DNA of 64,000 nucleotides from IMG/VR virus record IMGVR_UViG_2684623011_000001, positions 53,091 through 117,090 of that record. One strand, written 5' to 3'. Under the pieces are notes generated by a model. The model was not told where the DNA came from. It was given only the letters and a program-made list of their open reading frames with translations, and made no database searches. A program made the position numbers and the translations under genes. Position 1 is the first letter of the stretch. Every line of letters starts with the position of its first letter. This document shows positions 34,810-34,892 of this stretch, one piece after another. This DNA is from a virus. Taxonomy: Duplodnaviria; Heunggongvirae; Uroviricota; Caudoviricetes.

Positions 34810-34892
34810 CACCTAGAGAGGGATTTGAACCCCCGAACCCGAAGGAACGGTTTTGGAGACCGTCGCGTTTGACCAGACTTCGCTATCTAGGT
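34810..34892 (-). tRNA. class II (long variable arm) tRNA with anticodon CCA
   Basis: Acceptor ACCTAGA/TCTAGGT. Ser/Leu-type D-arm GCG-AAGTCTGGTCAAA-CGC. Anticodon arm ACGGT-CTCCAAA-ACCGT. 12-nt variable arm TCCTTCGGGTTC. T-arm GGGGG-TTCAAAT-CCCTC. 83 nt. Confidence 0.55.

Follow-up and report, generated by a model that had tools for sequence, protein, structure and literature searches.

Which amino acid is carried by a transfer RNA (tRNA) that has the anticodon of one class of tRNA and the body of another? The question is raised by a gene on the minus strand of a 64,000 nucleotide (nt) stretch of caudoviricete phage DNA (positions 53,091 to 117,090 of the IMG/VR record IMGVR_UViG_2684623011_000001), referred to here as the window. 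The gene, designated tRNA(CCA), is 83 nt long from position 1 to the discriminator base G73 (window 34810-34892, minus strand) and joins a CCA anticodon, complementary to the tryptophan (Trp) codon UGG, to a long variable arm. In textbook accounts such an arm is found in tRNA-Ser, tRNA-Leu, bacterial tRNA-Tyr and tRNA-Sec and is tied to recognition by the cognate synthetase. An earlier note, made from the sequence alone, had left the choice between a Trp tRNA with an extra arm and a Ser- or Leu-charged tRNA that would recode UGG. The former is favoured by the present analysis and the latter disfavoured: with a probability of roughly two in three, the gene is predicted to encode a functional phage tRNA that decodes UGG and is charged with Trp by the host tryptophanyl-tRNA synthetase (TrpRS), on a class II chassis.

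Structure of the tRNA(CCA) gene

The gene was called as tRNA-Trp(cca) by ARAGORN (34809-34893; in the drawing the discriminator is engaged in an optional eighth pair, U.G) and was matched end to end, over 34810-34892, by Rfam RF00005 (56.7 bits against a gathering score of 29, E = 1.7e-10). The cloverleaf features of RF00005 were present, and the 12 additional nt were located by the Rfam alignment exactly within the variable region. Class II is defined by a variable region of at least 10 nt (PMC7609411), and with a 12 nt region containing a stem-loop, together with a 3 bp D stem, the window tRNA belongs to this class. Its parts, all on the minus strand, are as follows.

34886-34892, minus strand: 5' strand of the acceptor stem, ACCUAGA, pairing with UCUAGGU at 34811-34817 (7/7 Watson-Crick; first pair A1:U72)
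tRNA positions 8-9 and 26, minus strand: U8 A9 and G26, read from the sequence
34865-34883, minus strand: D arm GCG-AAGUCUGGUCAAA-CGC, a 3 bp stem next to an A13-A22 mismatch and a loop of class II type that contains GG
34847-34863, minus strand: anticodon arm ACGGU-CUCCAAA-ACCGU, with U33, A36-A37-A38 and the closing pair U31:A39
34854-34856, minus strand: anticodon CCA (C34 C35 A36), from ARAGORN and Rfam
34835-34846, minus strand: variable region UCCUUCGGGUUC, 12 nt comprising a 2 bp CC/GG stem, a UUCG tetraloop and a UUC tail
34818-34834, minus strand: T arm GGGGG-UUCAAAU-CCCUC, from the Rfam alignment
34810, minus strand: discriminator G73, read from the sequence

The anatomy described in the earlier note was borne out throughout. 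The perfect 7 bp acceptor stem consisted of seven Watson-Crick pairs (ACCUAGA/UCUAGGU), the 3 bp D stem of GCG/CGC next to the A13-A22 mismatch, and the 12 nt variable arm with its CC-UUCG-GG mini-hairpin was recovered both as the Rfam insertion and in the minimum free energy fold. The anticodon arm with CCA at positions 34-36 was read in the same register by ARAGORN and Rfam, and a check for alternative registers found no 7 nt loop with a Ser or Leu anticodon; any other anticodon register was dismissed, both programs placing CCA at 34-36. All five helices, including the CC-UUCG-GG hairpin, were present in the RNAfold structure, whose folding energy z-score (-0.99) was not significant, so that thermodynamics by itself is no evidence for the tRNA. 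The 3' CCA is absent from the gene sequence. A promoter and terminator scan around the gene gave counts not above those of shuffled controls and was consequently uninformative.

Two further classes of long-armed tRNA were considered and rejected. tRNA-Sec needs a UCA anticodon and a 13 bp acceptor/T branch, whereas the window tRNA has CCA and a 12 bp (7/5) branch. An allo-tRNA requires 8/4 or 9/3 geometry; the window tRNA is 7/5, the eighth pair drawn by ARAGORN being a U.G pair with the discriminator.

A tRNA-Tyr-type core with Trp-type determinants

When tRNA(CCA) was compared by blastn with 50,697 GenBank phage records, the best matches were tRNA-Tyr genes, not tRNA-Trp. It was then aligned with a reference set of 45 distinct tRNAs from Staphylococcus, Enterococcus and Listeria contigs and from phage TPWB06. 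Five tRNA-Tyr genes ranked first (alignment scores 32.5-38.5, with 58-63 of the 83 positions identical), and lower scores were obtained with tRNA-Ser(tga) (19.5-25.5), tRNA-Trp (10.5-20) and tRNA-Leu (at most 14.5). Resemblance to tRNA-Tyr extended over the variable region in full, the D arm, U8-A9 and G26, and over all but one of the five anticodon-stem pairs. The D arm is that of Listeria, Enterococcus and Staphylococcus tRNA-Tyr, GCGAAGUGGCUAAACGC, save that its loop has 2 nt inserted and two other differences; the tRNA-Tyr from a Staphylococcus contig and that from phage TPWB06 have exactly the variable region UCCUUCGGGUUC. The D arm and variable arm are accordingly of the Bacillota tRNA-Tyr type. 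Away from these parts the window tRNA diverges from tRNA-Tyr: in both the acceptor and T stems, at positions 34 and 35, in the 31:39 pair and at the discriminator. The anticodon arm, in turn, was identical at 17 of 17 positions to that of an Enterococcus-contig tRNA-Trp (L397; loci are cited by such numbers where needed), which itself has A1:U72 and G73. The window tRNA is a mosaic in which a tRNA-Tyr-type class II core is combined with a Trp anticodon arm and Trp acceptor-end determinants.

Six of the reference records (OR846956.1, OR846627.1, OR846633.1, OR845017.1, OR850214.1 and PQ520226.1) are UNVERIFIED 'phage' entries of Listeria, Enterococcus or Staphylococcus. All six have tRNA operons of host type, resemble bacterial chromosomal DNA and are probably mislabelled.

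A phage-enriched family of long-arm tRNA(CCA) genes

Related genes were sought in IMG/VR with the pattern CTCCAAA-N(17-28)-GGTTCRAATCC, which matched at least 119 loci. Among the 119 matches listed, ARAGORN called at least 95 long-arm tRNA(CCA) genes of 81-92 nt (74 distinct), with variable regions of 11-19 nt. The same pattern applied to 185,579 cellular species genomes gave long-arm tRNA(CCA) genes in six of the 120 matches listed, and three of these six loci were dense arrays of 12-17 tRNAs resembling prophages or phage bins. A sample unbiased with respect to Trp, consisting of 119 phage loci with 1,022 tRNAs that had been found with an unrelated tRNA-Met pattern, contained 32 tRNA-Trp genes, all of class I. 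The long-arm form is a minority among phage tRNA-Trp. It is also a phage-enriched family, present in at least about 100 phage contigs and in nearly no cellular genomes; the window gene, rightly regarded as notable for a phage tRNA, is one member of this family and not a singleton.

Divergent orthologues of the window tRNA were sought and only near-identical copies were found, and covariation was therefore taken from the wider family, in a gapless alignment of 14 members sharing one layout. Compensatory changes were present in all five helices, with 98.8 % of cells paired. Both sides had changed in 20 of the 23 pairs, including all three pairs of the variable stem. None of 500 shuffles reached the observed values, and slid controls were 32-44 % paired.

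The chassis of the family is not uniformly Tyr-like, many members having Ser-like D arms. Some members have close tRNA-Tyr matches (L036 with L026; L013 and L119 with L006). Global alignment gave the members nearest neighbours of mixed isotype (Ser 30, Tyr 16, others) at low scores and does not decide where the family originated.

Some individual members and neighbours are unusual. G3.U70, the classical AlaRS determinant, was found in 7 of 70 (~10 %) long-arm CCA tRNAs (e.g. L114, L032 and L040), which may be chance in G.U-rich stems. Two cellular loci each carry a class II tRNA(CCA) as the sole tRNA within 8 kb. That of the Fimbriimonadales metagenome-assembled genome (MAG) JBBQMJ010000024.1 (L163) has G1-C72, G2-C71, A3-U70, U73 and a 19 nt arm and is, on these features, a candidate UGG-to-Ser decoder; that of the Ca. 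Saccharibacteria MAG CAZXQA010000001.1 (L236) has G1-C72 and A73, which would fit a Leu-type or an archaeal-type Trp identity. A tRNA-Ser with the unusual anticodon ACT (A34) shares its locus with long-arm CCA tRNAs in four IMG/VR loci (L007, L061, L075 and L096).

Identity positions

For bacterial tRNAs, identity has been assigned to the CCA anticodon, G73 and the first base pair in Trp; to A73 and U35 as critical positions, plus G1-C72 and the arm, in Tyr; to A73 as the critical position in Leu; and to the long arm and the conserved G1-C72/G2-C71, with G73 contributing, in Ser (PMC9976931, PMC5370408). In most bacterial tRNA-Ser the conservation of G1-C72 and G2-C71 is absolute, and the determinants of bacterial LeuRS are A73 and tertiary elements, not the long arm (PMC9976931). 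The premise of the earlier note that class II architecture is the identity determinant for SerRS and LeuRS consequently fails for LeuRS, and it had omitted the bacterial tRNA-Tyr, which is also of class II. The identity positions were parsed in 70 distinct long-arm CCA tRNAs and their co-resident class II tRNAs, and are set out below beside those of the canonical tRNA-Trp of the unbiased sample.

Long-arm CCA tRNAs (n = 70): G73 91 %; 1:72 pair A-U 51 %, G.U 27 %, U-A 7 %, G-C 7 %; other acceptor pairs varied; variable region median 14 nt; variable stem mostly 2-4 bp
Co-resident tRNA-Ser (n = 42): G73 86 %; G1-C72 95 %; G2-C71 98 %; A3-U70 88 %; variable region 15-23 nt; variable stem 5-7 bp in 36/42
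Co-resident tRNA-Tyr (n = 21): A73 21/21; G1-C72 20/21; other acceptor pairs not distinctive; variable region mostly 11-15 nt; variable stem 0-3 bp in 20/21
Co-resident tRNA-Leu (n = 43): A73 43/43; 1:72 pair mixed; other acceptor pairs not distinctive; variable region mostly 13-17 nt; variable stem 0-5 bp
Canonical phage tRNA-Trp (n = 32): G73 31/32; 1:72 pair A-U 17, G-C 9, G.U 4

The long-arm family bears the Trp acceptor-end signature and lacks those of Ser, Tyr and Leu. The window tRNA itself has the Trp determinants C34 C35 A36, G73 and A1:U72; among 1:72 pairs, A-U is the one seen most often in the long-arm family and in canonical phage tRNA-Trp alike. In place of the GUA, A73 and G1-C72 of tRNA-Tyr it has CCA, G73 and A1:U72, and it departs from tRNA-Ser in its 2 bp variable stem and in A1:U72, C2-G71 and C3-G70. 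Leu identity was ruled out because the window tRNA has G73, A73 being found in 43 of the 43 co-resident phage tRNA-Leu.

The composition of several phage arrays is informative about the place of the long-arm tRNA. The array of L082 has 24 tRNAs covering all 20 amino acids and that of L016 covers 19 amino acids plus a CUA suppressor, the long-arm CCA tRNA being in each the sole Trp decoder of the locus examined. In L063 and L117 essentially one tRNA per isotype is present and the Trp slot is taken by the long-arm tRNA.

UGG usage

TGG accounted for 1.25 % of the 10,612 codons of 36 window genes. The context of 16 TGG codons was examined in the DnaE-like polymerase gene, the product of which was aligned with five homologues: three fell in invariant Trp columns, two more in mostly-Trp columns and five in Phe/Tyr columns, and one (position 521) was aligned with Ser. 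Usage and context gave no sign of the recoding that the earlier note had entertained, TGG standing at conserved Trp or aromatic columns, and UGG is an ordinary Trp codon in this phage. Stop-codon recoding was dismissed, all three stops being used (TAA 27, TAG 6 and TGA 3 in the 36 genes) and the open reading frames (ORFs) being long. The tRNA(CCA) probably makes no change to the genetic code.

Proposed function and alternatives

As we picture it, RNase P and a 3' nuclease would process the precursor, and the host enzyme would supply the CCA that the gene does not encode. Host TrpRS would recognize C34 C35 A36, G73 and A1:U72, and A37 would be isopentenylated by MiaA (i6A37), since the A36-A37-A38 context is present. 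During infection the tRNA(CCA) would supplement the host tRNA-Trp, its decoding of UGG supporting phage translation. The arm would be an inheritance: a class II tRNA, of the tRNA-Tyr type in this phage, may have been remoulded through its anticodon, N73 and first pair, and would have retained the arm because the class II core presumably cannot fold without it and TrpRS would not reject it. TyrRS and TrpRS are paralogous class Ic enzymes (PMC5370408). An additional adaptive role of the arm is possible, room for which is left by the long-arm tRNAs of class I isotypes in the same phages.

Several observations weigh against Trp charging. Profile hidden Markov models (HMMs) trained on phage tRNA-Ser, tRNA-Tyr, tRNA-Leu and canonical tRNA-Trp, which gave near-perfect discrimination in 4-fold cross-validation, scored the window tRNA highest as Ser (30.3), followed by Trp (27.2), Tyr (19.2) and Leu (18.0); with the anticodon masked the order was Ser (23.8), Tyr (17.0), Leu (16.2) and Trp (11.8), and the Ser model was the best fit for 47 of the 74 family members. 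The chassis looks Ser-like by this measure. The order conflicts with that of the direct comparison with Bacillota references, in which Tyr came first, above Ser; we ascribe the low Tyr score to a training set of 38 heterogeneous, environmental sequences of which few were of the Bacillota type. At acceptor pairs 2-4 the window tRNA has C2-G71, C3-G70 and U4-A69, whereas the TrpRS of B. subtilis, which may not resemble that of the host, prefers G2-C71, G3-C70 and G4-C69, described as strong determinants for that enzyme (PMC9976931). Canonical and long-arm tRNA(CCA) occur together in some phages (L006/L057, L069, L070, L076 and L386), a hint that the two forms are not fully redundant, and a canonical tRNA-Trp may also be encoded elsewhere in the present genome, the window representing 64 kb of a ~138 kb phage. 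We know of no bacterial TrpRS that has been shown to accept a class II tRNA. Lastly, G73 and a long arm are both part of the core Ser identity, so that low-level or partial serylation is possible.

Were serylation the rule, the gene would encode a missense decoder inserting Ser at UGG, whether to mistranslate host proteins deliberately or as a tRNA accepting both Trp and Ser. SerRS ignores the anticodon, the Ser HMM ranks first as described, the polymerase TGG at position 521 aligns with Ser, and the Fimbriimonadales tRNA, with a true Ser-type acceptor end on a class II CCA tRNA, indicates that such molecules can arise. Even so, this is unlikely. The variable stem has 2 bp (mostly 2-4 bp in the family) against 5-7 bp in co-resident tRNA-Ser, the near-invariant Ser pairs G1-C72, G2-C71 and A3-U70 are missing, and the variable arm is identical to that of a tRNA-Tyr, a class II tRNA that SerRS normally rejects; Himeno and co-workers reportedly found in 1990 that turning tRNA-Tyr into a Ser acceptor also needed a longer variable stem. 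TGG codons at invariant Trp columns, and a long-arm tRNA as the sole Trp decoder in the 20-amino-acid array of L082, also weigh against Ser at UGG. The tRNA-Tyr type of the D arm and variable arm, with degenerate tRNA-like sequences nearby in the array, might instead suggest a decaying tRNA-Tyr pseudogene or a tRNA still charged by TyrRS. This is very improbable: the stems are all perfect or near-perfect, the gene is kept in five contigs including the window (identically in four), and G34, U35, A73 and G1-C72, on which bacterial Tyr identity critically depends, have all been switched, specifically to the Trp set, in a pattern that recurs across 70 distinct members, which makes the change coordinated and not random. 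A class II core that altered decoding, with UGA read in the manner of the Hirsh suppressor, or that permitted dual Trp/Ser charging, is less likely than the adaptive tag considered below.

A tRNA that is not used in translation at all, being instead an uncharged tRNA-Trp look-alike that serves as a decoy for a tRNA-targeting nuclease or, in a Bacillota host, as a T-box trigger for trpS and trp genes, would agree with an array in which non-canonical tRNA-like elements and six orphan T-arm motifs show that not every member need be a decoder, with the canonical tRNA-Trp kept beside the long-arm one in some phages, and with acceptor pairs 2-4 unlike the preference of B. subtilis TrpRS (PMC9976931). 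It is nevertheless quite improbable in view of a perfect Trp-type decoding arm with U33, A37 and U31:A39, compensatory selection on all helices, conservation of G73 and the 1:72 pair for which a decoy has no obvious need, and the Trp slot filled in one-tRNA-per-isotype arrays; for the T-box version, the family also spans contigs with very different tRNA chassis and probably diverse hosts. T-boxes are mainly a feature of Bacillota. A tentative alternative, doubtful though with some chance of being right, retains Trp charging and makes the arm an adaptive tag, the tRNA belonging to a parallel long-arm set (Trp, His, Lys, Cys, Asn, Met, Ile-UAU and others) in which cognate identity is kept. The tag would protect against nucleases or toxins or mark the tRNA for a phage factor, and might confer resistance to tRNA-targeting defence nucleases or to the phage's own depletion of host tRNAs. 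Long-arm His, Lys, Cys, Asn, Met, Arg, Ile(UAU), Thr and other tRNAs do occur in the same phage loci with isotype hallmarks kept (G-1 and C73 for His, U73 for Cys), and Lys*-Phe-Trp*-Ser*-His*-Lys, in which asterisks mark long arms, is a conserved cluster found repeatedly. Canonical forms stand beside long-arm Trp and Lys in the 501 kb contig L386, and likewise beside long-arm His in L025, L080 and L385; the phage enrichment is strong (95 genes in the 119 viral matches listed against six in the 120 cellular matches listed). On the other side, no such nuclease, toxin or binding factor is known, no tRNA-repair or -modification gene was found among ~30 scanned window ORFs, the long arm is confined in the window to the CCA tRNA, and the structural dependence of a class II core on its arm also accounts for retention. 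Trp charging on an inherited class II core is the reading preferred here.

Hairpin-arm tRNAs of 80-94 nt with class I anticodons were seen in phage contigs for His, Lys, Cys, Asn, Met, Arg, Gln, Thr, Gly, Val, Pro and Glu, and loci with such long-arm class I isotype tRNAs include L008, L019, L045, L066, L073, L101, L110, L275, L331 and L386. An 87 nt gene of the cultured Caulobacter phage CcrBL9 (MH588546.1 81826-81912; L128:3996-4082) is annotated as tRNA-Lys(CTT). Another long form that recurs in phages is a tRNA-Ile(UAU) 90-94 nt in length, whose variable arm measures ~22-24 nt, with CAGATTAG in most arms and CAGATAAT in two or three. It was found in L006, L010, L057, L266, L289, L292 and L312, and in the further IMG/VR loci L317, L319, L343, L346, L361, L363 and L372; in the Trp-unbiased sample this long form made up ~12 of the 13 long tRNA-Ile genes, out of 46 tRNA-Ile.

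Relation to known tRNAs

The window tRNA resembles canonical bacterial and phage tRNA-Trp in its CUCCAAA loop, U31:A39, G73 and A1:U72, and the same function, reading UGG, would be expected. It differs from canonical tRNA-Trp, a class I tRNA with a 4-5 nt variable loop, in its 12 nt hairpin and class II D arm. With the tRNA-Tyr of Bacillota, also of class II, it has the D arm, G26 and variable region in common, but every major TyrRS determinant has been replaced and the acceptor and T stems are unrelated. Class II tRNAs bearing class I isotype anticodons are known, among them the nev-tRNAs (PMC3333845). The nev-tRNAs are eukaryotic, poorly expressed and directed to rare codons, and they keep Leu/Ser identity, are charged with Leu and mistranslate (PMC3333845), whereas the window tRNA is phage-borne and its acceptor-end identity elements agree with its anticodon (Trp). 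Long arms with non-Ser anticodons are shared, too, by the allo-tRNAs and (8/4) tRNA-Ser/His, which come from metagenomes and are in some cases phage-borne (PMC5389517). The geometry of allo-tRNAs is 8/4 or 9/3 and their D arm resembles that of tRNA-Sec; they are mostly predicted Ser acceptors, Trp not being mentioned (PMC5389517); the window tRNA, unlike them, has 7/5 geometry and a Trp-type acceptor end. In both nev-tRNAs and allo-tRNAs body identity (Leu or Ser) overrides the anticodon, whereas in the window tRNA the two agree.

Another parallel is alloacceptor tRNA remoulding, in which the core of one isotype is likewise combined with the anticodon and acceptor determinants of another; for the window tRNA, similarity suggests the link between donor and recipient. 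In such remoulding, seen in mitochondria and E. coli, a tRNA gene is duplicated and switched to a new amino acid. We know of no described case that goes from a class II to a class I isotype with the extra arm kept. Searches of the full-text literature, incomplete in coverage, turned up no account of a class II tRNA-Trp, of this phage family or of phage tRNAs that join a class I isotype to a long arm, and the lists of class II tRNAs in reviews name Ser, Leu, Tyr and Sec only (PMC9976931, PMC7609411). Annotation pipelines label such genes plainly as tRNA-Trp or tRNA-Lys, as in CcrBL9, and their class is therefore invisible in databases.

If the tRNA is charged with Trp, a class II tRNA would be tolerated by a bacterial TrpRS, an enzyme without the arm-binding domain of its paralogue TyrRS, and the isotype would have been switched across the class I/II divide by the anticodon, N73 and first pair alone; this would bear on the evolution of tRNA identity and on the design of orthogonal tRNAs. 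Partial charging with Ser would make it the first UGG missense decoder to be found naturally in a phage. That His, Lys, Cys, Asn, Met and Ile(UAU) tRNAs also occur with long arms suggests that the extra arm is selected for by something in phage biology.

The phage, its tRNA array and related contigs

The window covers genes of replication and nucleotide metabolism from a divergent phage with ~35 % G+C. Its ORFs include those for the DnaE-like polymerase, a ligase, RecD-like and DnaB-like helicases, a sliding-clamp-like protein, kinases, PnuC, glutaredoxin and two integrase-family proteins. Among the ~30 scanned ORFs no aminoacyl-tRNA synthetase, RNA ligase, CCA-adding enzyme, nuclease or tRNA-repair or -modification gene was found, the genes recognized being solely those of replication and nucleotide metabolism. 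No close cultured relative was found, megablast of a 2 kb region against GenBank phages matching only a tRNA-Arg. The polymerase shares ~37 % identity with its counterparts in large Bacillus, Clostridioides and Thomasclavelia phages, including Bacillus siphophages, a resemblance that makes a host among the Bacillota probable.

The arrangement Arg(tct)...Trp(cca) was also found in three IMG/VR contigs, one of them IMGVR_UViG_2843020057_000001 with 138.5 kb, and in one ENA contig. The tRNA(CCA) sequence is identical in L123, L125 and L254, and differs in L124 at two adjacent D-loop bases. In L254 (ENA ERZ27247597 k141_14957), divergence from the window begins 33 nt downstream of the identical tRNA; a gene for a 487 aa IS605 OrfB/TnpB (Cas12f-like) protein at L254:3651-5114 is missing from the window just downstream of 34777.

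The array in which tRNA(CCA) lies, and of which it is the only long-armed member, is as follows.

31550-35574, minus strand: tRNA/tmRNA array with Arg(tct), tRNA(CCA), a doubtful 'Tyr', Ile(tat), a transfer-messenger RNA (tmRNA) and several non-canonical tRNA-like elements

Relaxed and intron-aware ARAGORN calls on the array were noisy and contradictory and were set aside. Between 31500 and 35400, 13 T-loop motifs GGTTCRANYCC were present, all on the minus strand, against 0.29 expected by chance. Seven of the 13 lie in called tRNA, tmRNA or tRNA-like matches, the T arm of tRNA(CCA) being one of the 13, and the six orphans are at 31912, 33314, 33801, 34159, 35236 and 35369 (minus strand). Three tRNA-like elements were detected by Rfam and missed by ARAGORN at default settings: 31550-31609, 60 nt long with the anticodon arm nearly missing; 32384-32457; and 35048-35116, with a 3 bp anticodon stem and an 8 nt loop. 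The 'tRNA-Tyr' at 33704-33786 is doubtful, having a C discriminator and a mismatched anticodon stem, and 33790-33888 can be drawn by eye as a tRNA-like RNA of ~100 nt. The tmRNA within the array (31947-32321, minus strand; Rfam 74.4 bits) has the predicted tag peptide ANNHRVTALAA.

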